Assembly: GCA_019873645.1 (NCBI GenBank)
Contig: JAIOAX010000022.1
Span: forward strand, 20,599-84,598
Source of the DNA: Chloroflexota bacterium
GTDB taxonomy: Bacteria > Chloroflexota > Anaerolineae > B4-G1 > SLSP01
Direction: 5' to 3'
DNA: 64,000 nucleotides
Under the pieces are notes generated by a model. That model worked only from the letters and a program-made list of their open reading frames with translations. It was not told where the DNA came from and did no database searches. This document shows positions 18,313 to 64,000 of this stretch, piece by piece; positions within the stretch are counted from its first letter, which is position 1, and each line of letters begins with the position of its first letter. The position numbers and the translations under genes were made by a program.

Positions 18313-18337
18313 TTTGATCTGTGTGGTTAGTTTTTGT

Positions 18338-18410: not shown

Positions 18411-18434
18411 ATTGAAATAGCGTATGGAGCTGGC

Positions 18435-19433: not shown

Positions 19434-19443
19434 GACCCGGGGT

Positions 19444-26109: not shown

Positions 26110-26154
26110 ACGTTGGCCCGTTTGAACGTTCAAACGCTTGCTTAAGGAGAACTG

Positions 26155-32514: not shown

Positions 32515-32519
32515 TGGGG

Positions 32520-35101: not shown

Positions 35102-36061
35102 ATGGGTTATAAGACGCTTTTGATTTACAATCCGACGGCCGGGCCATGGGATATGACACGCACGCTCAAACGCCTGGCCGATTATCTGCAAACCACCGGT
35201 TGGCAAATCGAACTGGTGCAAACTCAGCAGGCCGGTGATGCGACCCGCTATGCCCGTCAGGCAGCCGCGCAGCACACCGACATCGTATTGGTCGCCGGTG
35301 GGGATGGTACGATCAACGAAGCGGTCAACGGCGTCGCCGGTACGAATACGGTCTTAGGTCTCGTCCCTGTAGGTACCGGCAACATCCTGGCGCACCAACT
35401 GCACATGCCGATCCTGACGCTGACGGCGCCCTTGTACGTGCGCAAAGTGGGAGAGGCGCTGTGTGGAAGCCGCGTGCAGCGGGTGGATGTGGGTGTCGCC
35501 AACGGACGGTACTTTGTCTGCTGGGCCGGCCTGGGCCTCGACGCCGAAATCACGATGCACATTGAGCCGCGCCCACGCTACGCCAAGCGCTTGCGCACGC
35601 TCTCCTACATTATTGCCGGATTTGCCGTCGCCTCCGAGTTTCGCGGGGTGCGCTCGCGCATCGTGATTGAGGGACGTACCTTTCGCACCCGTGCCTTGAT
35701 GGCGTTGGCGAGCAACATTCAACTTTATGCTGCTTTCTTCAACATTGCGCCCCACGCGCGTATGGACGATGGCTTGCTGGACATTTTTGTCTTCAAGGGC
35801 CTGGGATTCCCATACATTATGCGCCATCTGCTGCATCTTTTCAGCGGCACCTACCGCCATGATCCCAAAGTGATGCATGCTCTGGCACGCACGATGCAGG
35901 TGCAGACGATCCCCACGGTCGCCGTGCACCTGGATGGCGATCCATTTGGGGACACGCCGGCCACCATCGGCATTGAACCGGGGAAGCTGCGCCTGTTGAT
36001 TCCCCCACAGGCGCCGGCAAACCTGTTCAGCAAACCGCCGGAACATTTGTCAACGGATTAA
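35102..36061 (+). CDS. Diacylglycerol-kinase-family lipid kinase (YegS/BmrU-like)
   Basis: LLIYNPTAG, VLVAGGDGTINEAVNG and LGLVPVGTGN. Confidence 0.85.
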   Translation: MGYKTLLIYNPTAGPWDMTRTLKRLADYLQTTGWQIELVQTQQAGDATRYARQAAAQHTDIVLVAGGDGTINEAVNGVAGTNTVLGLVPVGTGNILAHQLHMPILTLTAPLYVRKVGEALCGSRVQRVDVGVANGRYFVCWAGLGLDAEITMHIEPRPRYAKRLRTLSYIIAGFAVASEFRGVRSRIVIEGRTFRTRALMALASNIQLYAAFFNIAPHARMDDGLLDIFVFKGLGFPYIMRHLLHLFSGTYRHDPKVMHALARTMQVQTIPTVAVHLDGDPFGDTPATIGIEPGKLRLLIPPQAPANLFSKPPEHLSTD

Positions 36062-36182
36062 ACGGATGAAACGGATTTTAAATTTACCCTTTATGATCTG
36101 TGACGTATTTCGGCAACTTTTACTACCATAACGTTCTAACCTGCCAACGTTCCAACGATTCTCCATTATAAGGAGGTTGACT

Positions 36183-37088
36183 ATGCAATCATTGCTGGAC
36201 TGGGGTATCGCACTGATTTTGTGGCTTCAACGGTTTCATCCGGCGCTGGATTGGCCCTTCAGGGCGTTTACGTTCCTCGGCGACGAGCTGTTCTATTTGC
36301 TCTTTCTGCCTTTCGTCTATTGGTGTCTGGACCGTCGCACCGGAGCGCGGGTGACATTGCTATTTCTCGTCTCTGCCTATGTGAACGCGATAGCGAAAGA
36401 GTTCTTCAATCAGCCGCGCCCGGCGCAGTATAGCTCGCAGGTGTGGGCTTACTCCGACGTGGGCGGTTCTGCCGGACTGCCCAGTGGTCACACCCAAAAC
36501 ACCCTGGCCGTCTGGGGCTACCTGGCGGCAAAAGTCCGCCGCACCTGGCTGTGGATTTTGGCCGGTGTGCTGATCATCTGTGTACCGCTATCGCGGCTGT
36601 ACCTGGGCGTCCACTTCCCGCATGACTTGCTCGGCGGGTACGTTCTCGGCGCGCTGCTGCTTTTCGTTTACCTGCGCTGGGGCGAAGGTGGCGAACGGTG
36701 GATCGCCAAACAATCTCCGGCGCTTCGAGCGGCGCTCGTAGCCCTTATCTCGATTCCCTTGATGCTGATCTTCCCCACCGAGGATGGCGTGACCGGCGGC
36801 GCGACGCTGTTGGGGATGGGTTTGGGCTTTGTGGTCCAGGCGCGTTGGATCGGCTTTGAGGTTGAGGGGGAACTGTGGAAACGGGGCGCGCGCTATGCCC
36901 TGGGTGCAGCCGTGATGATCGGCCTGTGGGCAGGATTGCGAGCAGCTTTTTCCGGTTTGGAGCCGGCGCTGCTTTTCCGTTTCATTCGCTATACGCTGAT
37001 GGGATTCTGGGGGGGCGCGGGCGGCCCGTGGGTCTTCGTGCGCCTGGGACTGGCGCCGGGGTACGCTCAGAAGCAAGCGTCACGTTAA
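36183..37088 (+). CDS. PAP2-family phosphatase
   Basis: KEFFNQPRP, PSGH and SRLYLGVHFPHD are the three PAP2 motifs. SD AGGAGG sits 6 nt upstream of ATG 36183. Confidence 0.85.
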   Translation: MQSLLDWGIALILWLQRFHPALDWPFRAFTFLGDELFYLLFLPFVYWCLDRRTGARVTLLFLVSAYVNAIAKEFFNQPRPAQYSSQVWAYSDVGGSAGLPSGHTQNTLAVWGYLAAKVRRTWLWILAGVLIICVPLSRLYLGVHFPHDLLGGYVLGALLLFVYLRWGEGGERWIAKQSPALRAALVALISIPLMLIFPTEDGVTGGATLLGMGLGFVVQARWIGFEVEGELWKRGARYALGAAVMIGLWAGLRAAFSGLEPALLFRFIRYTLMGFWGGAGGPWVFVRLGLAPGYAQKQASR

Positions 37089-37117
37089 TCCGTTTCATCC
37101 GTTAAATTTGTTGACGC

Positions 37118-42527: not shown

Positions 42528-42620
42528 GATTGACCGCTCCTCAGAAAGTAGTCTGATAGTCCACTTTACTTTGATTATAGAACAAAGAACCGCCGTTGCA
42601 AGGCATCCCCCCAGACGGGG

Positions 42621-42763
42621 GCATTTCAGGATGGAGGCGATTTATTAGCTACGGCAACTAGACGCTGCTCAGGCCGGTCTCCAGACCGCGCCTGCGCAGC
42701 GTCTGATCTCGCTGTGGCGCGGTCAGAGACCGGTCACAGCGGGACTTGCCCCCAAGTTGAAGC
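42621..42763 (+). mobile_element. MITE-like hairpin element (GGCCGGTCTC core), full-length copy
   Basis: GCATTTCAGGATGG ... GGCCGGTCTCCAGACCGCGCC ... GGCGCGGTCAGAGACCGG ... AAGTTGAAGC. A 14-nt restart of the 5' end lies at 42780-42793. Confidence 0.7.
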
Positions 42764-42808
42764 ATCCCCCCAGACAGATGCATTTCAGAATAGTCCTTCC
42801 TAATTTAG

Positions 42809-47647: not shown

Positions 47648-47780
47648 GCGTTTCAACTGCGGAGTAAATCTTGCTGGCCGACCTCTGACTGCGCCACTGA
47701 AAATCAGGCGCGGTCTGGAGACCGGCCTGCGCATCGCCCAGTTGCCGCGTCTGATAAATCGCCCCGGTCCTGAAAGGCGC
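47648..47780 (-). mobile_element. MITE-like hairpin element (GGCCGGTCTC core), full-length copy
   Basis: GCGTTTCAACT ... GGCCGACCTCTGACTGCGCC ... GGCGCGGTCTGGAGACCGGCC ... CCTGAAAGGC. Confidence 0.7.
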
Positions 47781-47874
47781 CTATCCCGGCTCCCCACTTT
47801 CCTGTTTTTCGTTATTATGTTATCATATACCCATACGTTTCGGTCACTATTCTATATCGAAAGGGGAGAGAACA

Positions 47875-48390: not shown

Positions 48391-48621
48391 CCTGCCGTAC
48401 TATTCCGAAAACGGCCAGCAGACATCATGAGCGACGCGCTCAACCCAGCATGAAAATGCATGTCAACGGATTAAGCGGATTTGAACGGATTAGCTTTCAA
48501 TTGTCGCATAAACTGCTTAATCCGCCAAGTATTTTCGGAATAGATTAAGCAGATTTATAGAGGATTTAAACGTTCCAACGTGCTAACTTGTCAACGTGTA
48601 AACGATTTTTAGGGAGGTTGA

Positions 48622-49596: not shown

Positions 49597-49764
49597 ATGT
49601 CTGATCTGCGAGCACGTTACAAGCTGCGTGTCCCGGACGCAATTCACATAGGAACGGCACTGGTGTACGGAGCTACTGCCTTTATCACGAATGATTTAAA
49701 CCTGCGCTGCGTTACCGAGCTGGAAATTCTCGTGCTGACCGACTTCGCTTCCCCGATTACGTGA
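49597..49764 (+). pseudogene. PIN-domain toxin remnant (C-terminal about 55 aa only)
   Basis: MSDLRARYKLRVPDAIHIGTALVYGATAFITNDLNLRCV is a PIN C-terminal half. The N-terminal half is absent. Its 3' end overlaps the convergent GRE gene by 8 nt. Confidence 0.55.
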
Positions 49765-52201
49765 GTTCGTTGTGCGCCGTCCGCGCAATGATTTCATCCT
49801 GGAGCGCTTTGCTCAGATCGCAGAAGTAATCGCTGTAGCCGGCCACGCGCACGATGAGGTCGCGGTACTGCTCCGGGTGCGCCTGTGCGGCGCGCAGGGT
49901 GGCGGCGTCCACCACGTTGAATTGGATGTGATGCCCACCCATCTGGAAATAGGAGCGGATAAGGTGCACCAGCCCTTCCAATCCGGCGTCGTCCTGCAAC
50001 ACCGACGGCGTGAATTTTTGATTGAGCAGCGTCCCGCCCGTGCGGACGTGATCCATCTTGGCGACAGATTTGATGACGGCGGTTGGCCCACGCCGGTCTG
50101 CGCCCTGCACCGGCGAGATGCCTTCTGAAAGCGGCGTCCACGCCCGGCGTCCGTCGGCGGTTGCGCCGGTGACGCTGCCGAAATAGACATGGCACGTCGT
50201 CGGCAGCAGGTCAATGTGATAGGTCCCCCCGCGCGTGTTGGGACGCCCGTCAATGGCGTTGAAATATGCCTCGAAGACGCGCCGCATCACGCTATCGGCG
50301 TAATCGTCGTCGTTGCCGTAGCGGGGCGTGCGGTTGAGCAGCCGTTGGCGCAGGCGTTCATAGCCCACGAAGTCATTCGCCAGCGCGTCAAGCAGTTCGG
50401 CCATTGTGATCTGGGGGGCGGCCGGCTCGGTCAGAGACCGGCCAGAGCCAGATGGGGACATCTCGCTGGGGCCGGTCTCCAGACCGCGCCCCCCGCCGTC
50501 GAATACGTGGTACTTGAGCGCCGTCAGCGCGTCTGTGACCGAACCAAGCCCCACCCCCTGGATATAGGACGTGTTGTAGCGCGCGCCGCCATCGTGGTAA
50601 TCTTTACCTTTGGCGATGCAGTCGCTGATGAGCAGGGAAAGAAAAGGCGCGGGCATGTAGCGGGCATAGAGCCGTTCGATCACGGCGTTACCGCGGATTT
50701 TAACATCCACGAAGTAACGCAGTTGCGTCTCGAACGCAGCAAATAGTTCGTCGAAAGTCGTGAATGTGCGCGGAGCGCCGGTGCGCGGGCCGAGTTGTTT
50801 GCCGGTGCGCGGGTCCACGCCGTCGTGCAGCGTGATTTCGAGCACCTTGGGCAGATTAAAGTAGCCCGTTAGGTTGTAGTTCTCCTTGCCGAACGCGCCG
50901 GTCTCCACGCAGCCGCTCGTCCCGCCACAGCGTGCGTCTACCAGACTTTTGCCCACGCGCAACATCTCCTGGATGACGGTCTCCGTGTTGAAGACCGACG
51001 GTTGCCCGAAGCCGGTGCGGATGATGCGCGCCGCCCGCTTGATGAAGGCATCCGGGTTCTTTTGGCTGACCTGGATGGATGAGCTGGGCTGCAACAAGCG
51101 CATGGCTTCGATGACATCCAGGATGAGATACGTGACCTCGTTGACGCCGTCCGTGCCGTCCGGGCGCACGCCGCCGAGGTTGATCTGCGCAAAGTCGGTG
51201 TAGGTGCCGCTTTCCGCCGCCGTCACGCCGACTTTGGGCGGCGCGGGCTGATTGTTGAACTTGATCCAGAAACACTGCAGCAGTTCCTCGGCCTGCTCGC
51301 GGGTGAGCGTGCCCTCGGCGATCCCCCGGCGGTAGAACGGCTCAAGGTGCTGGTCGAGTTTGCCGGGGTTGAAGGAATCCCAGGGGTTCAGCTCCAGCGT
51401 CACGCCCAGGTGGACGAACCAGTAGTATTGCAGCGCCTCCCAGAAATCACGAGGGGCGTGCGCCGGAACGTGGGTGCAGACTGTGGCGATGTGCTCCAGT
51501 TCACGCTTGCGCTGTGGATCGGCCTCCTGTACCGCCAGTGCGCGCGCTTCCTCCGCATGACGTTCGGCGAAGCGGATGAGCGCATCCGCTGTGATCGCCA
51601 TCGCCTTGAGTTCTTCCTGTTTAGCATAGGCGTCGGGGTCGTTGAAAAAATCCAGCGCATCGAGGCTGGCTTGAATCTCGGCCTTGAAGTCGAGCATCCC
51701 CTTGTGGTAGATTTTGTCATCCAGCACGGTATGGCCCGGCGAACGTTGCTCCATAAATTCGGTGAAAATACCTGCTTCGTAGGCGGCTTTCCATTCCGGC
51801 GTCATTTCCTGAAAGATCAACTCGCGCATTGTCCGCCCCTGCCAGAAGGGGATGATGGTTTCGGCGTAGACCCGGCGCGTGTCCGGGCTGACGGCGAAGG
51901 GGATTTTCTCCCGCGAATTCAAGATATCCAGGTCGGCCAGACTATGACAGCACAGCTCGGGATACGTCGGCGTGGCTTTGGGGGCGGGGCCTTTCTCGCC
52001 GACGATGAGTTCGCCCGGGTGGATGCAAATGGCTTTGTGTTCCAGCAGGTATTGGAACGCCAGCGCGCGCTGCACCGGCGTGGACATCAAGTCGGTGTGG
52101 GTTTTGTAGAATTCCGTCATCAATTCTGCCCGCTCGCTGGAAAGCGTGGGGACGGCGTCGAGGCTCTGTTGGCGTAAGTGTGCCACTCTAAAGGAAATCA
52201 A
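49757..52201 (-). CDS. Glycyl radical enzyme, PFL2/dehydratase-lyase class
   Basis: C-terminal glycyl motif RVAGYSDYF. Active-site GCVE (Cys-x-Glu, as in eliminating GREs, not the PFL Cys-Cys). Also TADGRRAWTPLSEGISP. 814 aa. Confidence 0.9.
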   Translation of the reverse strand: MISFRVAHLRQQSLDAVPTLSSERAELMTEFYKTHTDLMSTPVQRALAFQYLLEHKAICIHPGELIVGEKGPAPKATPTYPELCCHSLADLDILNSREKIPFAVSPDTRRVYAETIIPFWQGRTMRELIFQEMTPEWKAAYEAGIFTEFMEQRSPGHTVLDDKIYHKGMLDFKAEIQASLDALDFFNDPDAYAKQEELKAMAITADALIRFAERHAEEARALAVQEADPQRKRELEHIATVCTHVPAHAPRDFWEALQYYWFVHLGVTLELNPWDSFNPGKLDQHLEPFYRRGIAEGTLTREQAEELLQCFWIKFNNQPAPPKVGVTAAESGTYTDFAQINLGGVRPDGTDGVNEVTYLILDVIEAMRLLQPSSSIQVSQKNPDAFIKRAARIIRTGFGQPSVFNTETVIQEMLRVGKSLVDARCGGTSGCVETGAFGKENYNLTGYFNLPKVLEITLHDGVDPRTGKQLGPRTGAPRTFTTFDELFAAFETQLRYFVDVKIRGNAVIERLYARYMPAPFLSLLISDCIAKGKDYHDGGARYNTSYIQGVGLGSVTDALTALKYHVFDGGGRGLETGPSEMSPSGSGRSLTEPAAPQITMAELLDALANDFVGYERLRQRLLNRTPRYGNDDDYADSVMRRVFEAYFNAIDGRPNTRGGTYHIDLLPTTCHVYFGSVTGATADGRRAWTPLSEGISPVQGADRRGPTAVIKSVAKMDHVRTGGTLLNQKFTPSVLQDDAGLEGLVHLIRSYFQMGGHHIQFNVVDAATLRAAQAHPEQYRDLIVRVAGYSDYFCDLSKALQDEIIARTAHNELT
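50418..50492. mobile_element. Core of the GGCCGGTCTC hairpin element inserted in-frame in the GRE gene
   Basis: GGCCGGCTCGGTCAGAGACCGGCC ... GGCCGGTCTCCAGACCGCGCC. On the minus strand it is translated as GGRGLETGPSEMSPSGSGRSLTEPAAP. Confidence 0.75.
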
Positions 52202-52239: not shown

Positions 52240-52644
52240 TCATCCTGTTATAAATGTTTTCAAGGATATGGCAATCGCAGGAAATTGATTAAGAATTTGC
52301 TTGTCTACTGTAACAAGCGGTACCCCCAAATCTTGCGCCAGAGCAACAAATTCACAGTCGTAAGCAGAACAAGTACTGTGCGCAACCAGTTTCAAGACCG
52401 ATACTGAGGCAACGGTATACTCCCGACCACGCAACAACATCAAGGCTTCATCCATAATCAAACAGGCGTCGTTTAGGGATAACCTACCCTGTCGCATGTA
52501 GAGCGCCAGTACATTCCGCAACTCACTGCGCCACAAATACGGCGCGGCCCAGTGTGAATCCTTGAGCAACACTTCTTGAACCTGCATGGAATGAGGGCTG
52601 CTCAAATACAGGTAGCCGATGATATTGGTGTCAACGACAATCAT
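52240..52644 (-). CDS. vapC: PIN-domain toxin
   Basis: MIVVDTNIIGYL N-terminus and the acidic residues of the PIN fold. 4-nt overlap with the antitoxin. Confidence 0.85.
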   Translation of the reverse strand: MIVVDTNIIGYLYLSSPHSMQVQEVLLKDSHWAAPYLWRSELRNVLALYMRQGRLSLNDACLIMDEALMLLRGREYTVASVSVLKLVAHSTCSAYDCEFVALAQDLGVPLVTVDKQILNQFPAIAISLKTFITG

Positions 52645-52889
52645 GCCCGGCCTGCTGTTTTTGCCGCATTAAAGTCCTCATCGCTGATCGGATAAGCCGA
52701 TGTTTTTTCGCGCAAGACTTGCGCCCTCGCCAATGTCATTTCGAGATCCATCGGTTGACCGCCCAGCGCTTGCTCAATGCAGACGATGATTTCACTGTTG
52801 ATACTGCGACGATGCAATTGCGCCGCTTGTTTCAATTGCACGTACAGTGCATCTGGTATGTTTTTTACAGTCACAGTTGTCATGCTCAT
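52641..52889 (-). CDS. vapB: RHH (FitA/VapB-like) antitoxin
   Basis: TVTVKNIPDALYVQLKQAAQLHRRSINSEI is an RHH N-terminus. Confidence 0.8.
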   Translation of the reverse strand: MSMTTVTVKNIPDALYVQLKQAAQLHRRSINSEIIVCIEQALGGQPMDLEMTLARAQVLREKTSAYPISDEDFNAAKTAGRA

Positions 52890-53009: not shown

Positions 53010-53747
53010 ATGGTTGAAACACCCGATATTGTACGTCCCCCGAAAGATTTGATCGAGAGTCTCAAAGATATCGGCAGTGCGACGGCCGCCGGCGCCTTGC
53101 GGCGCATGGGCATTCGCGACCCCCACATTCGCGGCCCCGTGGCGTGGAGTCCGGGGAAGTCGGTGGTCGGCCCGGCGCTGACGTTGCAGTGTATGCCGCT
53201 CCGCGAAGACATCTATGGCGGCGGGGAATACGTCGCCCCGGAGCAGCAGTTGCACCGCCATGTGCTCTATCACACGCAGCCTGGCGACATTGTTGTGGTG
53301 GATGCGCGCGGCGACATGGCGAGCGGCATCTTCGGCGAGATGATGCTGACGTATTTCAAAGGACGCGGCGGCATTGGCGTGGTGATTGACGGCTGCATCC
53401 GCGACTGGGTTCACGCCAAACATCTCGACCTGGGGTTCTGGCTGCGCGGCGTGACGCCGAACTATCACACGCAGACCAACATTTTCCCGTTTGCCGTGAA
53501 TGTGCCCATCGCCTGCAACAACGTCCTGGTGATGCCCGGCGACATCATCATCGCCGACGACGATGGCGCTGTGGTCGTGCCTGTCAAACTTGCGCCAGAG
53601 CTGGCGGCGCAGGCCAGCGTGAAACACGAATGGGAGGAATTTACCCGCCTGCGGCTATCCGAGGGCGGCGATCTGCGCAAGTATTACCCCCTCAGTGATG
53701 AGGCACGGGTCGAGTACGAGGCATGGCGCAAAGCGCAGGGGAAATGA
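53010..53747 (+). CDS. RraA-family protein (RNase E regulator / HMG-OAA aldolase family)
   Basis: GDIVVVDARGDMASGIFGEMM and GIGVVIDGCIRD. Confidence 0.8.
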   Translation: MVETPDIVRPPKDLIESLKDIGSATAAGALRRMGIRDPHIRGPVAWSPGKSVVGPALTLQCMPLREDIYGGGEYVAPEQQLHRHVLYHTQPGDIVVVDARGDMASGIFGEMMLTYFKGRGGIGVVIDGCIRDWVHAKHLDLGFWLRGVTPNYHTQTNIFPFAVNVPIACNNVLVMPGDIIIADDDGAVVVPVKLAPELAAQASVKHEWEEFTRLRLSEGGDLRKYYPLSDEARVEYEAWRKAQGK

Positions 53748-54548: not shown

Positions 54549-54629
54549 AGATGCGCTCCTTTTTGTGAAGTCGTTGGAACGCTGGAACGTTTGAACGTTC
54601 AAGCATTCCAACGTTTGTATACTACTCCA

Positions 54630-55153: not shown

Positions 55154-57430
55154 ATGGCAGATGAGCCTAACTTCCTCGATTTTGAAATTCACATCGCTGC
55201 GTGCAGGGATGACCGTTACCCGGGACATATTCGCCTGGGTGATGGCCAGGACTTCAACGGCGACTTATCTGCCAACTTGTTCCCTTGGACGCCCACCGGC
55301 AATCTGACCACCGACGGTCGGCGCCTTTTCGCCGCGCTCTTCACCGATCCACCATTGCGCCGCGCCTGGGATATGGCGTGCGGCAAGTCGTCACACCGCC
55401 GCATCCGCCTCTGGCTGGACGCGGACGCCCCCGAACTCCACACGCTCCCCTGGGAACTGCTCCACGACGGCCACACCTTCCTCGCTGCGGATGCCGCTAT
55501 GCCCTTCTCACGCTACCTGCCGAGCGACGCGCCGTGGGGCGGCCTTGTCGCCGAGCAGCCTATCCGCATCCTGGCGGTGATTTCCAACCCCGCCGATCTT
55601 GCCCGACCGCCATACAACCTCGCCCCTCTCGATGTGACCGCCGAGCAGAAGTTGTTGACCGATGCCCTGGGTAATCTCGTTCCTGCACACTTCCACCTGG
55701 AATTTCTGGAAGCCCCCGTGACGCTCGAATGCCTGGAACGCGCGCTGGCGTCCGGCCCTCGCGTCCTGCACTTTGTAGGACACGGTACGTTCAATGTCTC
55801 CAGACAGCAGGCTGCACTCTATCTGCAAGATGCCGCCGGTAATACACAGATCGTAACCGACGCCCAATTGTGCGATATGCTCCGTCGCCAGGCAAAGCTA
55901 CCTGGCCTGATCTTCCTGGCGGCGTGCCAGAGCGCGGAACGTTCCGAGATGGATGCTTTTGCGGGACTCGCGCCCAAACTGGTACAGACGGGCATCCCGG
56001 CGGTGGTAGCGATGCAGGACGCAGTTGCTATGGCTGCGACACAAAAACTGACGCCGGTATTTTATGAAGAACTGGCGCAACACGGCACGGTAGACCGTGC
56101 CCTCAACGCCGCGCGGAGCCTGCTGCTGACCGGCCAATCGCCGGATGCCGCAACGCCGGTGCTTCTGATGCGGCTGAAGGATGGCAAGTTGTGGGAACCC
56201 TTGTGGACGAAGACCAACCCCTATCGCGGCCTGGCGGCTTTCACCGAGGACGACGCAAAGTTTTTCTTCGGGCGCGATCAATTGATTGCAACGTTACTGG
56301 CCCATTTACGCAGCGACTCGCGCTTCCTGGTCGTCGTCGGCGCATCTGGCAGCGGCAAATCCTCGGTCGTGCAAGCTGGATTGGTCCCGGCCTTGCGCAA
56401 AGGCGCTCTATTCGGTAGTCAGGATTGGTCTATCGTCACATTCCGCCCAGGCAATGATCCGTATCCTTCAGTAGACCTGTCAGGTTTTCTGAAACCTGAC
56501 AGGTCTGAGAAACATTCGGTGATCTTGGTTGATCAGTTTGAGGAACTGTTTGCCTTGTGTTCCGAAACGGTACAAAAGCGATTCCTGGATGATCTGCTGG
56601 CGCTCATTGACAGCCCCGCCCCGGTGACGGTGATCCTGACCGTGCGGGCGGATTTCTACGAATATCTGTTGCACCATGCGCTAAGCGAGCGCATCCAGAA
56701 AGCGCAGGTCAACGTGCTGCCGATGAAGCCGGAGGAGCTGCGCGCGGCGATTGAAGAGCCAGCGCGAAAGGTGGGCCTGCGGTTTGAGGCCGGCCTGGTG
56801 GAGACCATCCTTCAAGATGCCAGCGCCAGTGCAAATGCCTTGCCGCTGCTTCAATCAGCGTTGACGCAATTGTGGTACAAGCAAGTGCAAGGTGTGCTAA
56901 CCTATGCCGCCTACAGAGCCATTGGCGGGGTGACGGGTGCGATTAGCCTATGGGCAGATAACACTTACAGCTACCTCAGCGCCCAGGAGAAACTTCTCGC
57001 GCGGCGCGTCTTGACGCGCCTGGTTCACTATGGCGAGGAGGGCGCCGCTGATACACGCCAGCGGCAGGCCCAGGCTGACCTGGTAACAGAACCGGGCGAA
57101 CAGGATACTCTGCGCGGAGTGGTGCGAAAGCTGACGGACGCCCGGCTGGTGGTCACGGGCGAAGGCGAAACCATCGAAATTATCCACGATGCATTGTTGC
57201 GCGAGTGGGGTCAACTGAAACAGTGGGTCGCCGAACAGCGTGAGTTTTACCTGTGGCGGCAACGCTTGAATGTCCAGTTGCAGACGTGGAAAGCACAACA
57301 AGAGGATGAAGGCGCGCTCCTGCGCGGCGCGCTGCTGGCCGAGGCGGAACGCTGGCTGCAGGCAAAGCCAGAGGAATTGAATGAGGTAGAGGAAGGCTAT
57401 ATTGCGCGCAGCCTCGCGCTCCGGCAGTAG
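55154..57430 (+). CDS. CHAT (caspase-like protease) domain fused to a STAND-type P-loop NTPase
   Basis: CHAT His (LHFVGHG) and Cys (FLAACQS). Walker A GASGSGKSS and Walker B VILVDQFEELF. Ends at an in-frame TAG. Confidence 0.8.
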   Translation: MADEPNFLDFEIHIAACRDDRYPGHIRLGDGQDFNGDLSANLFPWTPTGNLTTDGRRLFAALFTDPPLRRAWDMACGKSSHRRIRLWLDADAPELHTLPWELLHDGHTFLAADAAMPFSRYLPSDAPWGGLVAEQPIRILAVISNPADLARPPYNLAPLDVTAEQKLLTDALGNLVPAHFHLEFLEAPVTLECLERALASGPRVLHFVGHGTFNVSRQQAALYLQDAAGNTQIVTDAQLCDMLRRQAKLPGLIFLAACQSAERSEMDAFAGLAPKLVQTGIPAVVAMQDAVAMAATQKLTPVFYEELAQHGTVDRALNAARSLLLTGQSPDAATPVLLMRLKDGKLWEPLWTKTNPYRGLAAFTEDDAKFFFGRDQLIATLLAHLRSDSRFLVVVGASGSGKSSVVQAGLVPALRKGALFGSQDWSIVTFRPGNDPYPSVDLSGFLKPDRSEKHSVILVDQFEELFALCSETVQKRFLDDLLALIDSPAPVTVILTVRADFYEYLLHHALSERIQKAQVNVLPMKPEELRAAIEEPARKVGLRFEAGLVETILQDASASANALPLLQSALTQLWYKQVQGVLTYAAYRAIGGVTGAISLWADNTYSYLSAQEKLLARRVLTRLVHYGEEGAADTRQRQAQADLVTEPGEQDTLRGVVRKLTDARLVVTGEGETIEIIHDALLREWGQLKQWVAEQREFYLWRQRLNVQLQTWKAQQEDEGALLRGALLAEAERWLQAKPEELNEVEEGYIARSLALRQ

Positions 57431-57439
57431 GAACGCGAC

Positions 57440-58219
57440 ATGCGTGAGGCGCAGCAGCGACGCGAACTGGAACAGGCGCAGGCGTTGGCGCGCTCTGAGA
57501 TACGCCGCGCTAAAATTTTACGGTTTGGATTGGGTATATTAACCGTCTTTTTGTTCATAGCAATAGGCGCGGCCTGGCTTGCGATGCGGCAAACTGACCG
57601 GGCTGAACAGCAAGCCCGAATTGCGCTAGCACGCCAACTCGCCGCCCAGGGACAGGCTGAGTTTGCAAATAACCCCTTGCTGGGAGTACGGCTGGCGTTG
57701 GAAGGGTTAGCGTTAGCATCGCCAGAAGACGTAAATTTCCGAAAGGAACTTGTGAAGCAAACCGGTGAATTGGCGCAATCCGGACGTCTGCTCAAATTGG
57801 GTGAAGATGTAGAAGAAACACACCTCAGTCCAGATGGCTCTGTCTTTGTGCTAGTGCGCGCAGATGCACCCAGCGAATTACGCCGCACTGCCGATGGTTC
57901 ACTCATCGTTCAGCTCACCGCTAAAGTAGACTCTATATACTTTGACAAGAGCCTATATACGCGCTACTTTGTGATACGATATAAAGATACATACGGTGAA
58001 TTACGGCGTACTGTTGATGGTTCAATCATTGCGACACTCAAAGACGAGGTCTATTCTGCGTCTTTCAGTTCCGATCCCAATGCGACCTACTTCGCAGTGT
58101 ACTACTTTAATTCTTCAAGTGAATTACGGCGTACTGCGGATGGCCTGGTTATACCACTTACAGATCAAGTCCATGAAGTTTTTTTAACCCTAATCCAAGT
58201 GCAATCTCCTTTGTGGTGA
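57440..58219 (+). CDS. TM helix plus the first 3 propeller-type repeats; probably the continuation of 55154-57430
   Basis: Same frame as the upstream ORF, separated only by TAG plus 3 codons. TM helix LRFGLGILTVFLFIAIGAAWLAM. Repeats ELRRTxDGS. Confidence 0.6.
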   Translation: MREAQQRRELEQAQALARSEIRRAKILRFGLGILTVFLFIAIGAAWLAMRQTDRAEQQARIALARQLAAQGQAEFANNPLLGVRLALEGLALASPEDVNFRKELVKQTGELAQSGRLLKLGEDVEETHLSPDGSVFVLVRADAPSELRRTADGSLIVQLTAKVDSIYFDKSLYTRYFVIRYKDTYGELRRTVDGSIIATLKDEVYSASFSSDPNATYFAVYYFNSSSELRRTADGLVIPLTDQVHEVFLTLIQVQSPLW

Positions 58220-59412
58220 GTTATCGGGATGCTCCTGGCGAGCTGCGCCGTATCACTGACGACACGGTGATCGTACTTCGAGATAAAGTCTATGAAGTTC
58301 TCTTTAGTCCTGATTTGAATGCAACCGTCTTTTGGGTGAGTTACCGTAATCAAATCGAAAGTGAATTGCGCCGCACATCTGATGGCTCAATCATTGAGAT
58401 ACTTACGGGTATAGTTACCACACCTACGTTCTTTAGTTCTGATTCTAATGCAACTTACTTGGTGACGAGTTACCTTAACGCACCAAGTGAACTTCGGCGT
58501 ACCTCGGATGGTTCGGTTATCGCAAAACTCTCTGGTGGGGTTATGTCTGGTGGAGATTTCAGTCCTGACCCAAACGCAGCTTATTTGCTGGTTAGATATA
58601 ATAGTAACACACTAGCGGAACTGCGCCGTACTATTGATGGCTCAACGATTTTAACACTCACAGCCCAAATATATTATACCGCCTTTAGTCCAGACCCACA
58701 TGCAACATACCTGGCCGTGACCCATAATTTCGGCACTGACCTGCTCTACTGTGCCAATGGATTACTTGTTACAACGCTCACCGACTATGTTCCCCAAGGT
58801 GGTATCTTTTTCAGTCCTGGTCCAACAGCCGCTTATTTTGCTGTTATGTATGGAGATATGCCAAGTGAACTGCGTAACACGATAGATGCGTCGGTTATCG
58901 TGACGTTTTCAGGCCGGCTATCCCATAACGGGGTAATTTTTAGACCCACTCCCAATACGACTCACTTTGTAGTGGGCTACGACAATGCACAAGTAGAGTT
59001 GCGCCGCACCAATGATGGGAAAATTGTCGAGACACTCACAGGCAAGATTTCTATTTATGATAATATGTTTTTCAGTCCCGACTCAAACGCCGCCTACTTT
59101 ATGGTGCCTTATGCAGACGGACATAGCGAAGTATGGCATACCACTGATGGTTATCGCTTGGTTGACCTATCTATGGGTAGAAAAGGGCTTGCTTTTACGC
59201 CAGACGCAAAACGGCTTCTCGTCTGGTATACCAATGGTCAGGCATACCTCCTCGACCTCGATTGGCTGACCGCCATGAGAGGTAATCCCGCCGCACTCTC
59301 GCCAGAAGAACTAACCCGCATCATCTGTGACGGCCCAATGGCTTCCGGCATGTTTGACGAAAGTACGCTTGCACAGTATTTGGACGGCCGCGAACCGCAG
59401 GCGTGCCGGTGA
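58183..59412 (+). CDS. Eight or nine further PD40/WD40-like repeats (-1 frame continuation of 57440-58219)
   Basis: The roughly 42-aa repeat ELRRTxDGSxI..L....FSPDxNAxYFxV continues seamlessly if the frame shifts -1 in the T7 run 58179-58185. The track ORF begins at GTG 58213. Confidence 0.6.
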   Translation, partial: FNPNPSAISFVVSYRDAPGELRRITDDTVIVLRDKVYEVLFSPDLNATVFWVSYRNQIESELRRTSDGSIIEILTGIVTTPTFFSSDSNATYLVTSYLNAPSELRRTSDGSVIAKLSGGVMSGGDFSPDPNAAYLLVRYNSNTLAELRRTIDGSTILTLTAQIYYTAFSPDPHATYLAVTHNFGTDLLYCANGLLVTTLTDYVPQGGIFFSPGPTAAYFAVMYGDMPSELRNTIDASVIVTFSGRLSHNGVIFRPTPNTTHFVVGYDNAQVELRRTNDGKIVETLTGKISIYDNMFFSPDSNAAYFMVPYADGHSEVWHTTDGYRLVDLSMGRKGLAFTPDAKRLLVWYTNGQAYLLDLDWLTAMRGNPAALSPEELTRIICDGPMASGMFDESTLAQYLDGREPQACR

Positions 59413-59537
59413 GAGAAGAAAGATTTGGAAATCACCATAAAAACTCTTGCGCGCTTCAGAAGGGATGCCGCATCTCTTAGAGTTGGCGTTGATCGCGGCC
59501 AGCGACTTGAACTGGCAGAGCGAGCGTATCCAGGCTG

Positions 59538-60356
59538 ATGTTGACCGAGAGTGAAAGTCTGGCGCGGCGCATCTGTGATTACGAAGATGACAGCCATCCC
59601 GAAGCAGAAGATGCGCAACACGATGTCGCCGAACGCGGCGGCAAGGTTCACATCGCCGTGACCGGGGGACGCAGCGGGATGGGGGCGCTGGCGGCGTTGG
59701 CGACGAACCTCTATGGCGCAGATTTCATGTGGCATCTGTGGGTCAGGCAGGACATCGAGGAAGGCGGTACGGTGGACAAGTTGACCGGCCTGGACGATCC
59801 GGAGCAGATGCGGGCTTCATGTTTCCTCAACCCGACGGTTGTGCCAGATGCCTGTGAGGTCGTCCAATTGCCGTTCCTGGACCTGCGCCCGTTGCATCCG
59901 GTGTTGTGGGAGTTCCGCCGCACAGGCAAACTGCCCGACGCAGTGGTGAACCCTCTGGCAACCCTGTTCAACCGATCGGACATCAAAGGCTTCGCCGATG
60001 TCTTCCCGGCCGGCCTGACATTCGGCGCCGCCGACGAAATTATGAGACTCAAGGCGCGTTACATCCAGGCCAGGATGCCTGGGGAGCGACGTTCTGCCCT
60101 CGTTGAGTTGGGAGAACTGCTGCAAAGATATTCGGTCGTGGATAAAGACGATTGCCAGCCAATGATAGACCTGGTTGCCGATGAAGCCTCTCCCGAGAAG
60201 TGGGCAAAATGGGCGGCCAGGAGAACCAGGGACCGAATCGGTTTTTGGAAGTGGCTGGCACAGAATAAAGACCAAATCACGCTCGTGCTGTCTACCGGTA
60301 CATTTTTGCTCACAGCGCTAGAGTTGTATCTGAAATTCCAAGGGTTATTGCCTTGA
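59538..60356 (+). CDS. Hypothetical protein; core resembles the C-terminal half of the Cas_NE0113 (CARF-like) family; C-terminal TM helix
   Basis: AVTGGRSGMGALAALATNLYG..HLWV..E and VQLPFLDLRP compared with my remembered SIAGGRKTMGFYLGYALSLFG..HVLV..E and EIPFVRLR. This is recall only and needs an HMM check. Confidence 0.4.
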   Translation: MLTESESLARRICDYEDDSHPEAEDAQHDVAERGGKVHIAVTGGRSGMGALAALATNLYGADFMWHLWVRQDIEEGGTVDKLTGLDDPEQMRASCFLNPTVVPDACEVVQLPFLDLRPLHPVLWEFRRTGKLPDAVVNPLATLFNRSDIKGFADVFPAGLTFGAADEIMRLKARYIQARMPGERRSALVELGELLQRYSVVDKDDCQPMIDLVADEASPEKWAKWAARRTRDRIGFWKWLAQNKDQITLVLSTGTFLLTALELYLKFQGLLP

Positions 60357-60366
60357 GAGCCTATTG

Positions 60367-61119
60367 ATGCCTACCATTCTCACTTTCCCCCTTTCCCCCA
60401 CCGAAGCCGCCGCGTTGCCCCCTTACCCTGGCCGCGCGCTCCACGCCCTCTTCTACCAGTGGCTCGCGCTCGGCGACTATGCCCTCTCGACGCGCGTTCA
60501 CGATGACGACGGCCCCCGCCCTTTCACCGTCGCGCCGCTGCACCGCGCGAACGGCCAGCCCATGCTGCGCCTCACGCTACTCGACGATGCGCTCTGGCCC
60601 GCCCTGGCAGCCGGCATCGCCCTGACCCCCACCGTCGAGGTGCTGGGCCGTCTCTTGACCCTCCCAAAGGAAGGCCCCCGGCTGGAGCACTGCACCTACG
60701 CAGACCTGGCGAACGCCGCGCGCGCCGAGACACGCTTGAACCTGCGCTTCATCTCACCCACCAGCTTCCGCTCGCGGGAGATGCACTACCCACTACCCGA
60801 CCCGGTGCTGGTGTTCCAATCGTGGCTCAACCGCTGGAACGAATTCGCGCCGGAGGAACAGCAGATCAATGTGGCGGTTCTGGATCTGGTAGCGGCGCAC
60901 GTGGCGGTAAGTTACTACAACGGACGCACGGAAATGGTGGACTTTGGCGGTAACAAGCGCGTGGTGGGCTTTGTGGGGGCGGTGCAATATCACATCCTGC
61001 GCCCGGCGCTGATCGGTGAGACCTGGCTGCGCGCGCTCAACACGCTGGCCGATTACGCGCCCTTCTGCGGGACGGGGCATAAGACGGCGCAAGGTATGGG
61101 GCAAACGCTGCGTACCTGA
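60367..61119 (+). CDS. cas6: Cas6-family CRISPR endoribonuclease homolog (orphan)
   Basis: PFTVAPL, LRFISPTSFRS, PLPDPVLVFQSWLNRWNEF and the C-terminal glycine-rich loop CGTGHKTAQGMGQ. Starts 10 nt after the previous gene. Confidence 0.7.
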   Translation: MPTILTFPLSPTEAAALPPYPGRALHALFYQWLALGDYALSTRVHDDDGPRPFTVAPLHRANGQPMLRLTLLDDALWPALAAGIALTPTVEVLGRLLTLPKEGPRLEHCTYADLANAARAETRLNLRFISPTSFRSREMHYPLPDPVLVFQSWLNRWNEFAPEEQQINVAVLDLVAAHVAVSYYNGRTEMVDFGGNKRVVGFVGAVQYHILRPALIGETWLRALNTLADYAPFCGTGHKTAQGMGQTLRT

Positions 61120-61166: not shown

Positions 61167-61403
61167 TCAAAGCCGGTCATATTCCTCTGGTTCTACATCT
61201 GCCACTTTGGCCAGTGCAGCTTCGAATCTGGCTCTATCTCCTCGTTTCGCCCGTTCCGCTAAATATCCCACCGTCTTTAAAGCCGCGACTTTCTCGGCCA
61301 CTGCCAATACGATTAACTGATTGATCGAAACCTGTTCTGTTTCGGCTAACTCCCGCACCGTCTGGTGTAAATAATTGGGTAATCGCAAACTTATCGTACT
61401 CAT
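61167..61403 (-). CDS. RHH-type antitoxin
   Basis: STISLRLPNYLHQTVRELAETEQVSINQLIVLAVAEKV. 4-nt overlap with the PIN gene. Confidence 0.75.
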   Translation of the reverse strand: MSTISLRLPNYLHQTVRELAETEQVSINQLIVLAVAEKVAALKTVGYLAERAKRGDRARFEAALAKVADVEPEEYDRL

Positions 61404-61828
61404 TCTTCTACTCCCATTTTCGTCAAAAATTCCGCTGGCGTGATTATCCTCACCCCAAACTGCTCTATCCCTGCAAAATCCTGGCGGTTATACGTGACGA
61501 TAAATTCACATCTGGCATTGACCGCTAACTCCAATACCATATCATCTTTTGGGTCTTTAAGAAATGGCCGCCATAAGTAGAATATCTCGTGTTGCTGCGC
61601 TATCCGACATAGGTAATCCAGAATGTCGTCTATATCTTGCTCGTTGAGAGCTATCTGGCCAAGCAAACGTTTAGCTGCATCTTCATATTCCAGCACTAGC
61701 GGCACAGACAGATTGATCTCAAAGTTGGCTTGACCTACCAACATAAGCAATCTGTAAGATGCGCCTCGTCGAGAGCGTAAGGCCGAAACGATGACATTGG
61801 TATCAAGAACGACTTGAGTTTTACTCAT
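61400..61828 (-). CDS. PIN-family toxin (TIGR00305-like)
   Basis: VVLDTNVIVSAL... and DDMVLELAVNARCEFIVTYNRQDF. Confidence 0.8.
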   Translation of the reverse strand: MSKTQVVLDTNVIVSALRSRRGASYRLLMLVGQANFEINLSVPLVLEYEDAAKRLLGQIALNEQDIDDILDYLCRIAQQHEIFYLWRPFLKDPKDDMVLELAVNARCEFIVTYNRQDFAGIEQFGVRIITPAEFLTKMGVEE

Positions 61829-61881
61829 AATGGTATTATATACAATACCAATGATTCGTCAAGCCTTACTTCTAGCTGGGT

Positions 61882-61976
61882 GCATTTCAGGATGGGGGCG
61901 ATTTATCAACTACGGCTACTGGACGCTGCTCAGGCCGGTCTCCAGACCGCGCCTGCGCAGCGATTGATCCCGCAGT
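61882..61976 (+). mobile_element. MITE-like hairpin element, 3'-truncated copy
   Basis: GCATTTCAGGATGGGGGCGATTTATCAACTACGGCTACTGGACGCTGCTCAGGCCGGTCTCCAGACCGCGCCTGCGCAGCG... is nearly identical to 42621-42700. The second arm is missing. Confidence 0.7.
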
Positions 61977-64000
61977 GTAAAAATGCGGTTTCCTGGGCGA
62001 TGGCGTTTTCCAGGAGTTCGAGGAGCGGACCGGTGGGCGCGGGGAGGTGGTAATCGGTGTCCGGCGGGACGGCGTGTTGCAACGCTTCGAGGAGAGCAGC
62101 CGCAAGATGGTCGGCGGCGTCGCGGTGGGGCAGGTCGAGCGCGCGTTCCCAGGCCTGGGCCAGGGCGTGGGTGCCGGGAACCGGTGCGCCGAGGACGTCG
62201 GCCAGGTGCGCGTAGACGCGCAGGGCCGCCGTGATGACAGCCTGCTCAGGGGGCGTCCGTTGCGCCGGTGAGGTGGCAGGCAGGGGCAACGCCGCGGCAG
62301 GGACGTCCACAGCGGGGATGATGCCCTGGCGCGCCAGACGGCGGAGCAAGGCGTCAAGCTGCGCGGCATCCACCCGCACAGCGCGTGGGGAGAAGGTCTC
62401 GCGCGTCAGTTCGCGGAGGCCGCGCTGGCGCATCAAGGTCTGGAGGAGCGCGGGATCACGGGTTTCGAGGATGACGACTTGCCGCACCTGCACCTGATTC
62501 AACGCGGCCGCCCAGCGGTACAACGTCGCCACAACCTGCGCCGGGAGAGGACCGGCAGCGGCTTCGAGGAGCGCGAGCAGGCCGGCCAGGGTTTCGCCTT
62601 GCTGCCACGCGGCCAGCACATTCGCGGCGGTGAGTTCGTAAGTATCCGGGGTGAGAGGGTGCGGCGGGGCATAGCGTTCGAGGCGCAGGCGCAGCGCCAA
62701 CGTCAAGCCGGGGGCGCCTGCCGGCGGCTGGGCGACGACGCGCAGCCACAGGCGCGGTTCAGCGTCTTCTGCCGCCGATTCCGCGCGGACAATCAGGCCG
62801 GGCAACGGACCCTCGGCAGACCGCGGGACGTCCACCTGTCCCCACAATGCAGCGCCAGCAGGCGTGAGGAGCACGCCGGCTTCCGTCAACTGCACCATGC
62901 CAAACCATGCCAGCGGGCCGGTTAGCAGCGTTTCCAACGCGGCTAACTGCGTGCCACGATATTCGGCCTGCGCGTCCGGGTCGAGGGCGGCCCAACTTTG
63001 ATAGGCAGCCACGGGACGGAATAGCTCCGGCGCGCGTTCTTGCAGCGTCTCCCATAAGCGCGACAGGGTTACGGGCGCGCCGGTGAGCGTCGTCTGGAGC
63101 GCGGCGCACACCTGCGCAAAGCGCGCGGGGGGATCATCTTCGGCAGCCAACGGCAGGCGATACCGCTTCCACAATGCGGCGTTTTCGGCATCCGGCGCGC
63201 GCCACGCTTTCCAGAGGGTTTGCCAGCGCGTGAATTCAGGCATATCCAGCCATGCGAGCGCGGCAGGGGTAGGTTTGAGCCGGTCGCCGATCACCCCCAC
63301 CAGCCCGGCGCGTTCCGCCAGATAGTGCAGGAAAGCCAGGTAGGGCCAATGGTGCTCGCTGCGCGCGGGGACAGCGGGCGCAGCAGTCTTGATCCACACC
63401 GCCAGGGCACGCAACGCCGAGAACGGCAACCAACGCCCGTGCAGAGGCCGCACATCAACGCGATGGAGAAAACTCAGCCAGGTAAAGAGGTCAGCCAGGA
63501 GCGGGAGTGAGGGAGAGAGAGGAAGAGAGGGGGAAAGAGCGGCAGGCTGAGAAGCATTGAGAAAGGCGGTGAGGGGGGCCTGATATTCCTGGGGCAGCAC
63601 GATGGCCGGTTGAGGACGGTCGAGCGTGCCCCGATCCAGAGGGAAAATAAGCGCGCGATAGAACAACGCTTCGGTGGGAGAAACTGGCGCTTCCCAGGGC
63701 GCCGCCGGGCTATCGGCGCGCCAGGGGCGATAAGGGCGCAGTTCGCCAAAGCGATAGACGAAGTCACCGCGCGCGATCTGTCCGCCGGCCTCCAAGAGTG
63801 CCCGCAGCGCAGTTTGGAGTTCAGGCGTCAACCCGGTGCAGATGGTGGCCAGGCGCGCTGGCGAGACCGCCAGTTGCGCCAACGCTTCGACAGCGGCGGC
63901 TTTGGGGCGGGACGTATCGAACGGCCAACCGTTGGCGCGCGCGAGCGCCGCGAGCACCCGACGGTTTTGCGCCGCCAGGCACGCGCGTACATTCAGCCAG
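61930..64000 (-). CDS. Large Ala/Leu/Pro-rich hypothetical protein, partial (N-terminus beyond the window); possibly helicase-associated-domain-like
   Basis: The frame stays open to base 64000. The last 14 codons and the stop are encoded by the MITE copy. No catalytic motif recognised. Confidence 0.5.
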   Translation of the reverse strand, partial: WLNVRACLAAQNRRVLAALARANGWPFDTSRPKAAAVEALAQLAVSPARLATICTGLTPELQTALRALLEAGGQIARGDFVYRFGELRPYRPWRADSPAAPWEAPVSPTEALFYRALIFPLDRGTLDRPQPAIVLPQEYQAPLTAFLNASQPAALSPSLPLSPSLPLLADLFTWLSFLHRVDVRPLHGRWLPFSALRALAVWIKTAAPAVPARSEHHWPYLAFLHYLAERAGLVGVIGDRLKPTPAALAWLDMPEFTRWQTLWKAWRAPDAENAALWKRYRLPLAAEDDPPARFAQVCAALQTTLTGAPVTLSRLWETLQERAPELFRPVAAYQSWAALDPDAQAEYRGTQLAALETLLTGPLAWFGMVQLTEAGVLLTPAGAALWGQVDVPRSAEGPLPGLIVRAESAAEDAEPRLWLRVVAQPPAGAPGLTLALRLRLERYAPPHPLTPDTYELTAANVLAAWQQGETLAGLLALLEAAAGPLPAQVVATLYRWAAALNQVQVRQVVILETRDPALLQTLMRQRGLRELTRETFSPRAVRVDAAQLDALLRRLARQGIIPAVDVPAAALPLPATSPAQRTPPEQAVITAALRVYAHLADVLGAPVPGTHALAQAWERALDLPHRDAADHLAAALLEALQHAVPPDTDYHLPAPTGPLLELLENAIAQETAFLHCGINRCAGAVWRPA

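Follow-up and report, generated by a model that had tools for sequence, protein, structure and literature searches.

A CARF-like gene and a cas6 beside a CHAT-nSTAND1 gene in a Chloroflexota genome: probable remains of a type III-D CRISPR operon in a decaying defence island

Introduction

Does a gene for a caspase-like CHAT protease that lies next to a CARF-like gene and a cas6 belong with them to a new defence module, or have unrelated pieces of defence DNA come to lie side by side? The question is raised by positions 55154–61119 of a 64,000-nucleotide stretch of contig JAIOAX010000022.1 from a Chloroflexota (Anaerolineae-like) genome; this whole stretch is referred to below as the window. 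An initial annotation, made from the letters alone, described five co-oriented open reading frames (ORFs) here, all of which are present: 55154–57430, 57440–58219, 58213–59412, 59538–60356 and 60364–61119. It offered two readings: (a) an undescribed module in which a CHAT-STAND sensor is coupled to a CARF-like protein and to Cas6, and (b) the remains of a type III locus lying beside an Avs-like gene. We conclude with good confidence that a type III-D operon has lost its CRISPR array and all of its genes but the final two, namely the CARF-like gene and cas6, and that this pair adjoins a CHAT-STAND gene to which it is unrelated. It is very probable, in other words, that two unrelated defence elements stand side by side in a decaying defence island. 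The locus represents ordinary defence-island decay and not a new system.

Collinearity with type III-D operons

A homologue search with the 272-residue CARF-like ORF found 125 proteins, of which 120 were listed. Almost all of those listed are longer (303–464 residues), the named ones come from Chloroflexota (Thermoflexia, Anaerolineales/Anaerolineae), and one carries the NCBI name 'CRISPR-associated ring nuclease'. The closest full-length homologue among them, P0002 (339 residues, 84% amino acid identity), is encoded on an 11.3-kb contig, L002, where its gene stands last but one in a complete type III-D operon. The order of that operon is Cas10-Csm3-Csx10-Csm2-Csm3-Csm3-Csx19-Cas7-Csx21-Cas_NE0113-Cas6, where all names other than Cas_NE0113 are those given by PADLOC, which identifies Csx10 as the Cas5 of III-D and the terminal protein as Cas6d. 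DNA similarity between the window and L002 is confined to 59607–61119 (9530–11042 of L002, 81% identity). The match opens 270 nt (90 codons) into the Cas_NE0113 gene and closes exactly at the stop codon of cas6. The protein alignment agrees: residues 24–272 of the window ORF correspond to residues 91–339 of P0002, its first 23 residues are unrelated, and the two Cas6 proteins are 80% identical over their full length.

We surveyed related loci in two sets. The first, from exact-protein look-ups and a scan of GTDB representative genomes, comprises 11 distinct loci (L002, L003 (= L004, L010), L005, L006 (= L007, L008), L009, L011–L014, L016 and L017 (= L018)); the second, from a metagenome scan, adds 29 more (L020–L048). 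Among these roughly 40 loci, every one with upstream sequence has type III-D effector genes directly upstream of the Cas_NE0113 gene, and cas6 follows it in every one with enough downstream sequence; no cas6 was detected on the shorter contigs L041, L043 and L048. Set against the operons of L002, of the Ardenticatenaceae contig JACKBQ010000001 (L003) and of the Thermoflexia contig DUEL01000026 (L006), the last two genes of the window are orthologous and alike in order, spacing and stop; cas10, all the RAMP genes, csx19, csx21 and the array are absent from the window, and its CARF gene has lost its first 90 codons. This comparison upholds reading (b), that of type III debris beside a STAND gene: the window pair lines up with the final 1.7 genes of a III-D operon, and all informative relatives have the same operon in front of the pair.

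According to reading (a), the CHAT-STAND sensor would be coupled to the short CARF-like protein and to Cas6, with Cas6 processing local structured RNA and the CARF-derived protein acting as an adaptor to the protease. The arrangement of the genes speaks for such a module: they all share one orientation, they are separated by 9 nt, an overlap, 125 nt and 10 nt in turn, and no terminator-like site lies between 59412 and 59538. The initial annotation had itself proposed to look for CHAT-STAND genes next to Cas6 in other genomes. In the roughly 40 related loci, neither the CHAT-nSTAND1 protein nor the transmembrane (TM)-repeat protein encoded behind it has a single match, which largely refutes the module by that test. 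The collinearity with the 3' end of the III-D operon, with homology that opens in the middle of a gene, likewise argues against it. The close gaps and shared orientation are the product of a deletion and not of operon design.

The other components that a working system would need are missing from the window. No CRISPR array was found in the 64 kb by Tandem Repeats Finder, by two repeat searches or by Rfam, and the 37-nt repeats of the related loci, their consensus (with three mismatches allowed) and their conserved 3' end are all absent from the window. By tblastn the window yields no match to any of the other ten L002 proteins (nine of type III-D and one partial upstream ORF), be it Cas10 (at E ≤ 1e-3) or the eight proteins comprising four Csm3/Cas7, Csx10, Csm2, Csx19 and Csx21. 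PADLOC finds no Cas family, Cas10 included, among the other 54 ORFs. The earlier statement that no array, cas1/2, cas10 or cas7 exists in the 64 kb is thus borne out by array searches, tblastn and PADLOC alike. The locus is a remnant and not a type III-D system; as it has no Cas10 and no intact CARF, the stump presumably could not signal.

In L003, L004 and L005, arrays with 37-nt repeats (of a GTC...GAAAC/GAGAC type) and a period of 72–74 follow cas6. The array of L003 (12013–13931, equivalent to 11373–13085 of L004) mixes two repeat variants, ...CCTTTGAGGGGTTGAAAC and ...CCTGAGAGGGATTTAGAC, with the variant type at either end, as if two arrays had fused or were degenerating. In the window, the array position is taken by a PIN_3 toxin and HicB-like antitoxin pair (61167–61828, minus strand; PF13470, PF05534). 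A PIN toxin and RHH antitoxin pair (52240–52889, minus strand; PF01850, PF22513) lies on the other side, confirming the toxin-antitoxin modules that had been seen on both flanks; an RraA-like gene (53010–53747) also stands on that side. The AT-richer patch is also real (GC content 0.51 at 58–60 kb against about 0.59).

The suggestion that local hairpin repeats could be Cas6 substrates did not hold, as these repeats are unlike the CRISPR repeats of related systems; the module reading is left with no local repeat resembling such a substrate. The 'abundant hairpin repeats' are probably clusters of intergenic repeats, with a period of 8 nt (CGTTGGAA) or 9 nt (ATCCGTTTA / AGCAGATTA), some of which form inverted pairs. 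These clusters lie at 16087–16142, 19691–19722, 26100–26139, 36129–36160, 48560–48607 and 54569–54616, with others at 11727–11753, 18335–18411, 36048–36076, 37079–37114 and 48461–48480, and they do not resemble the 37-nt repeats of the related III-D loci.

The junction and the truncated CARF gene

The breakpoint lies within 59413–59606 (plus strand), a segment that consists of the 125 intergenic nucleotides and the first 23 codons of the CARF-like ORF; homology to L002 starts at 59607. Neither blastn nor tblastx finds anything similar to this segment in the related loci or in the remainder of the window, a 25-mer taken from it is absent from the JGI metagenome contigs, and no mechanism of rearrangement, whether insertion sequence or recombination between repeats, was identified there. 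A scan for promoters and terminators around 59413–59537 returned nothing informative. We suggest that a deletion or recombination would have removed everything from cas10 through csx21 together with the first 90 codons of the Crn1-like CARF gene, that the array normally found after cas6 would also have been lost, and that a fortuitous ATG at 59538 would have reopened the CARF frame. The order of these events, and the loss of function that goes with them, we infer.

The 5'-truncated Cas_NE0113 gene (59538–60356, plus strand) matches PF09623 with 46.6 bits against a cut-off of 23, at profile positions 94–180 of 208 only, and the PADLOC CARF5 model at 4e-16. Its assignment to the Cas_NE0113 family, with the N-terminal half gone, was therefore correct; the C-terminal 'TM helix' that had been added to the description is not established, the homologues having charged residues in that helix. 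In an alignment of twelve sequences (the window ORF and 11 homologues), the nearly invariant N-terminal block VLVSPLGRSPGAVSG, which holds the PLGxSPG motif, is missing from the window ORF, the block GGRSGMGALAALA with the GGRSGMG motif is kept, and no invariant residue is lost from the retained CARF part.

Compared with the PDB, the family profile matches Crn1-type ring nucleases (7z55 at 6e-10, Sso2081 at 4e-7) over positions 6–126, with both motifs inside the match. The identification of Cas_NE0113 with Csx15 was considered and rejected, as the PDB comparison places Crn1 (Sso2081, Sis0455) best. The full-length family aligns with the Crn1 enzymes (Sso2081, Sis0455; PDB 7ygh, 7z55) over its N-terminal 120 residues, including LGxSPG and GGR(K/S)GM, and differs from them in an extra helical C-terminal domain of about 150 residues. 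Crn1, Csx16 and Csx20 have demonstrated ring-nuclease activity, which in Csx15 varies (PMC12409355, PMC13148439). An AlphaFold2 model of P0002, with a mean predicted local distance difference test score (pLDDT) of 77 and about 90 in the CARF part, has a CARF fold: strands at residues 4–10, 30–38, 61–67, 104–107, 130–136 and 173–178 are followed by an all-helical C-terminal domain. The best Foldseek matches of this model are Sis0455, Sso2081 and the CARF domain of Cad1.

Measured against this model, the window ORF lacks β1–β3 (P0002 residues 4–67), that is, three of the six core strands, and does not contain the complete β1–β6 fold; it also differs from Crn1 in the absence of LGxSPG, the motif placed after β1, while GGRxGM, placed after β4, is kept. 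The model suggests that its product would be unable to form a CARF domain. Because the Rossmann-like sheet has been halved and only one of the two motifs aligned with Crn1 survives, we suggest that it could neither bind nor cleave cyclic oligoadenylate. The loss of the three strands and of one conserved motif counts against a coupled module.

Cas6

The cas6 gene (60367–61119, plus strand; product of 250 residues) is apparently intact and is the terminal gene of the former III-D operon; its true start is the ATG at 60367 and not the ORF start at 60364. The ORF matches PF10040 (77 bits, cut-off 25), PF19308 (27 bits, cut-off 23.9) and the PADLOC Cas6d model (1.4e-34 over residues 10–248), and scores 44.6 with the NCBIfam equivalog TIGR01877, under the cut-off of 58.65. 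With PF10040, PF19308 and Cas6d all matched and the protein at full length, the earlier naming of a clear Cas6 is secure. Ten relatives share 23 invariant columns, and the window protein keeps every one, the G-rich loop GTGHKTAQGMGQ included. Exact-protein look-ups of Cas6 with either of its possible starts, and of the PIN toxin, gave no record.

Cas6 enzymes can act in trans on arrays shared by type I and type III systems. An explanation compatible with a truncated operon is that cas6 is kept under selection and serves arrays or effectors elsewhere in the genome, the CARF stump being a passenger. The full length of the protein and the complete set of invariant residues, loop included, fit this explanation, as does a ratio of nonsynonymous to synonymous substitution (dN/dS) of 0.19 between the window and L002. 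On the other side, no array or effector gene lies within 64 kb, and the place immediately downstream of cas6, where relatives have their array, is held by the PIN toxin-antitoxin pair. The low dN/dS, moreover, cannot show present-day selection because it mostly reflects the time before the deletion. We regard service in trans as possible but rather doubtful. A search for the cognate repeat RNA found no related CRISPR repeat within the window, and the enzyme could still cut precursor CRISPR RNA only given a matching array elsewhere in the genome.

The CHAT-nSTAND1 gene

The ORF at 55154–57430 (plus strand) encodes a caspase-like CHAT protease followed by an nSTAND1 nucleoside triphosphatase (NTPase). 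The CHAT domain is matched by PF12770 (E = 4.5e-37, 128.5 bits, residues 55–331) and the NTPase by PF20703 (E = 5e-112, 375.7 bits, profile positions 1–378 of 379). The translation shows the His/Cys dyad of the protease (His in LHFVGHG, Cys in FLAACQS) and the Walker A (GASGSGKSS) and Walker B (VILVDQFEELF) motifs of the NTPase, so that both the domains and the motifs quoted for this ORF at the outset are sound. Behind it (57440–59412) are encoded about a dozen repeats of 40–43 residues with the consensus ELRRTxDGSxI...FSPDxNAxYFxV, together with a coiled-coil-like stretch and a hydrophobic TM segment of 23 residues (ILRFGLGILTVFLFIAIGAAWLA). C-termini annotated as WD40 in nSTAND1 and TIR proteins align with the repeats, which the Pfam WD40 model itself matches marginally only (E ~0.01–0.03). 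The TM helix and the 11–12 WD40-like repeats of the initial annotation are thus found, but the ORFs that carry them are not separate genes.

ORFs 55154–57430, 57440–58219 and 58213–59412 are one interrupted ancestral gene, because the first two share a frame with a TAG codon between them, relatives read through this position, and a run of seven Ts shifts the frame further on. The ancestral gene ran to about 1,418 codons, of which the first ORF accounts for the N-terminal 758. The in-frame TAG (57428–57430, plus strand) falls between the nSTAND1 and TM-repeat parts, in the translation ...SLALRQ*ERDMREAQQRR..., and six homologues (P0123, P0125, P0128, P0147, P0149 and P0209) are single polypeptides that align continuously across it. 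An ATG three codons past the TAG, in the same frame, opens the next ORF (57440–58219, plus strand), the middle piece, which holds the TM helix and the first WD40-like repeats and is homologous to the TM and repeat regions of nSTAND1 and TIR proteins. The T7 run (58179–58185, plus strand) is the site of a −1 frameshift, and the remaining repeats and the C-terminal tail continue in the shifted frame (58213–59412, plus strand). One added T would restore ...HEVFFNPNPSAISFVVSYRDAPGELRR..., which fits the repeat consensus, and yields a perfect repeat unit and a TM-repeat region of 657 residues. Homologues span 90–100% of this repaired region unbroken, and P0125 aligns to the repaired protein over residues 353–1362.

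The relatives support the same conclusion. Homologues of the TM-repeat region are mostly fused behind nSTAND1 or TIR domains in proteins of 860–1,145 residues, and 10 of the 12 other listed proteins with CHAT and nSTAND1 domains are single chains of 909–1,304 residues. The two shorter ones are P0122 (734 residues, ending at a contig edge), which at 65% identity is the closest homologue of the CHAT-nSTAND1 ORF among those listed, and P0124 (458 residues). Such homologues are abundant, with 3,811 at E ≤ 1e-30 among the candidates scored. We also considered stand-alone TM-repeat homologues as evidence for natural gene fission; this was rejected, the case examined, P0248, being merely cut at a contig end. 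In the window, the C-terminal sensor is no longer in the same polypeptide as CHAT-nSTAND1, having been cut off by the TAG and split again by the −1 frameshift. As the nonsense codon and the homopolymer frameshift divide it into three ORFs, the CHAT-STAND gene is probably inactive, or at best a fission product. These lesions also tell against the coupled module.

In the ancestral protein, a propeller on the far side of the membrane would sense a signal, the nSTAND1 NTPase would then oligomerise, and the caspase-like CHAT domain would in turn be activated and cleave its targets. The TM segment (57490–57560 of the window) between NTPase and propeller is conserved in P0123 and in homologues of TIR-TM-repeat type, which would place the repeat sensor across the membrane from the CHAT/NTPase or TIR part. 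The topology implied for these TM-propeller proteins is receptor-like, whereas the sensor usual in Avs/NLR-type proteins is cytosolic.

We considered whether the junction at 59413–59606, the TAG or the T7 frameshift might come from a chimeric or erroneous metagenome assembly, in which case the real STAND gene would be intact and the III-D fragment would derive from elsewhere. Homopolymer runs are classic sites of sequencing error. The sequence is apparently derived from a metagenome: the window proteins are listed on a single contig of 85,317 nt, beyond which there is one further record, a Logan contig (L001, 4,595 nt) assembled from the single run SRR16606022. That separate assembly is, however, 100% identical over 56481–61075 and carries the TAG, the T7 split and the junction; it is not a fully independent check because both assemblies may share reads. 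One would not expect a chimera to start at the very point at which a usable frame is regained and to finish with the stop codon of cas6, and a nonsense substitution is atypical of assembly error. An artefact is accordingly very unlikely.

Weighing the evidence

The homology boundaries, the conservation of the operon, the lesions in the STAND gene, the missing cas genes and the lack of conserved adjacency are direct observations, and they carry our reading of the locus as the end of a III-D operon beside an unrelated, broken gene. Several points weigh against it. The CARF stump has an open frame with an ATG and keeps its C-terminal helical domain whole. The retained parts show no visible decay, judging from their invariant residues and from dN/dS (about 0.18 for the CARF stump against L002, next to that of cas6), which fits continued selection on both ORFs as well as it fits recent truncation. 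The ATG three codons past the TAG could mean functional gene fission and not inactivation of the CHAT-STAND gene. Our searches covered the 64-kb window, and a type III effector operon with its array could lie elsewhere in the genome. Finally, STAND genes and III-D operons tend to share islands, since co-oriented NB-ARC STAND genes stand directly upstream of the III-D operon in 2 of the 11 loci of the first set (L003, 1–609; L016, 1–1708). The NB-ARC STAND of L003 has TPR repeats, and those of both loci belong to a different clade from the nSTAND1 of the window.

The relatives that occupy the same operon slot differ from one another in their C-terminal parts. An EAD7 domain is inserted in the C-terminal helical domain of P0028 (L016, 10001–11329), and a death-like bDLD1 domain stands at the C-terminus of P0032 (L017, 9201–10580; L018, 10001–11380). 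EAD7 is also found on a CHAT protease related to that of the window, P0148. By hhalign, the homologues with EAD7 have this C-terminal domain in common with the rest, interrupted by an insertion. In L016 (11445–14299), the gene for the CARF-EAD7 protein is followed by a metallophosphatase gene and two different cas6 genes, one with AF_1859_N, instead of a single cas6. The presence of EAD7 and bDLD1 on these CARF proteins, and of EAD7 on CHAT proteases, is a hint that type III signalling in Chloroflexota may recruit effectors through adaptors. The coupling of CARF to vWA-MoxR-VMAP-type domains such as EAD7 near type III loci has already been catalogued (Altae-Tran et al. 2023, PMC10910872).

Because relatives in the III-D slot carry EAD7 within the C-terminal domain or bDLD1 at the C-terminus, and EAD7 occurs on related CHAT proteases too, one may ask whether the C-terminal domain of the stump and Cas6 have been co-opted as adaptor or processing partner of the neighbouring CHAT-nSTAND1 gene. 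If so, CRISPR-derived parts would be linked to an NLR-like caspase. We consider this highly improbable. For a composite module proper, these adaptor domains elsewhere and the dN/dS values of the CARF part and cas6, which resemble purifying selection, are further points in its favour. A profile search of the window CHAT-nSTAND1 protein, however, found no EAD or death-like adaptor domain, so that nothing is seen to link it to the CARF remnant. Taken with the CARF half-fold that is gone, the disrupted CHAT-STAND gene and an adjacency found in none of the roughly 40 related loci, this leaves reading (a) extremely improbable, and we prefer that of a truncated III-D operon beside an unrelated gene.

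Relation to known systems

Each component belongs, as a new sequence, to a kind already known: a type III-D operon, the Crn1-like Cas_NE0113 family, a Cas6d-like Cas6 and a CHAT-nSTAND1 protein. The class to which the last belongs, in which a caspase, trypsin or TIR effector is joined to nSTAND1 and to repeats such as WD40 propellers, has been described (Kaur, Iyer, Burroughs & Aravind 2021, PMC8195603). The window gene shares with these nSTAND1 conflict NTPases a full nSTAND1 domain with Walker A and B, the CHAT His/Cys dyad, and WD40-like repeats behind a TM helix (compare P0123, P0125 and P0244); it differs in being divided into three ORFs and in repeats too divergent for a confident Pfam WD40 match. 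The arrangement CHAT-nSTAND1-TM-WD40-like is a very common NLR-like class of Chloroflexota and cyanobacteria.

With the CRISPR-linked CHAT proteases (Csx29/TPR-CHAT of type III-E, and SAVED-CHAT) the window protein has the caspase-like CHAT domain in common. The PADLOC SAVED_CHAT model matches it at 5.4e-10 in the CHAT region only (profile positions 60–253 of 498). It differs from them in that its CHAT domain is fused to a STAND NTPase and that it lacks SAVED, the TPR-CHAT architecture and a gRAMP/Cas7-11 partner: profile searches of the protein gave no SAVED or TPR match, and there is no type III effector in the window. The nearest relatives of its CHAT domain are fusions with STAND, TPR, PQQ or FGE-sulfatase domains that are unrelated to CRISPR.

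The label 'Avs-like' given to the gene at the outset applies loosely, in that Avs/AVAST proteins follow the same general logic of effector, STAND NTPase and repeat sensor. The NTPase belongs to another STAND clade, nSTAND1, and its TM helix points to a sensor across the membrane, as opposed to the cytosolic sensors of Avs. The Avs4 models place the protein outside that family (NCBIfam 18.5 bits against a cut-off of 1500; PADLOC E = 7.5e-4, P-loop region only).

Other features of the window

A dispersed repeat element of about 100–200 nt with GC-rich palindromic cores (GGCCGGTCTCCAGACCGCGCC / GCGCGGTCAGAGACCGG) occurs at 42599–42800, 61878–61977, 32516–32618 (minus strand), 47705–47781 (minus strand), 19442–19468 and 50424–50490. 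A two-part fragment of this element lies in frame inside the gene for a PFL-like glycyl-radical enzyme (49757–52201, minus strand), where it encodes approximately GGGRGLETGPSEMSPSGSGRSLTEPAAP at about residues 569–597, exactly at the point where the Pfam PFL-like match splits into two stretches. Three tandem paralogous genes of about 430 codons each are found at 5551–6840, 6859–8136 and 8363–9667, with DNA repeat families that are up to 91% identical between the first two copies.

A gene for RtcA, the RNA 3'-terminal phosphate cyclase, is present at 17197–18312. A regulator of the CARF-type RtcR kind was not found beside it. The single 'CARF3' match that PADLOC gives in the window falls in the 216-residue ORF at 11790–12440. 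This match was rejected as a second CARF gene; it covers only the C-terminal 46 residues, which are probably the DNA-binding region of a putative regulator.

Conclusions

The locus is an example of how defence islands erode: a III-D operon has been cut down to its last 1.7 genes, beside a STAND gene in the midst of pseudogenisation. 'Orphan' cas genes in such a setting are not to be read as new systems, and the locus is a cautionary case for the automated discovery of 'novel CRISPR-associated' modules. A more interesting lead than the locus itself is provided by its relatives, the Crn1-like CARF proteins that carry EAD7 or death-like adaptors in a fixed slot of Chloroflexota III-D operons.

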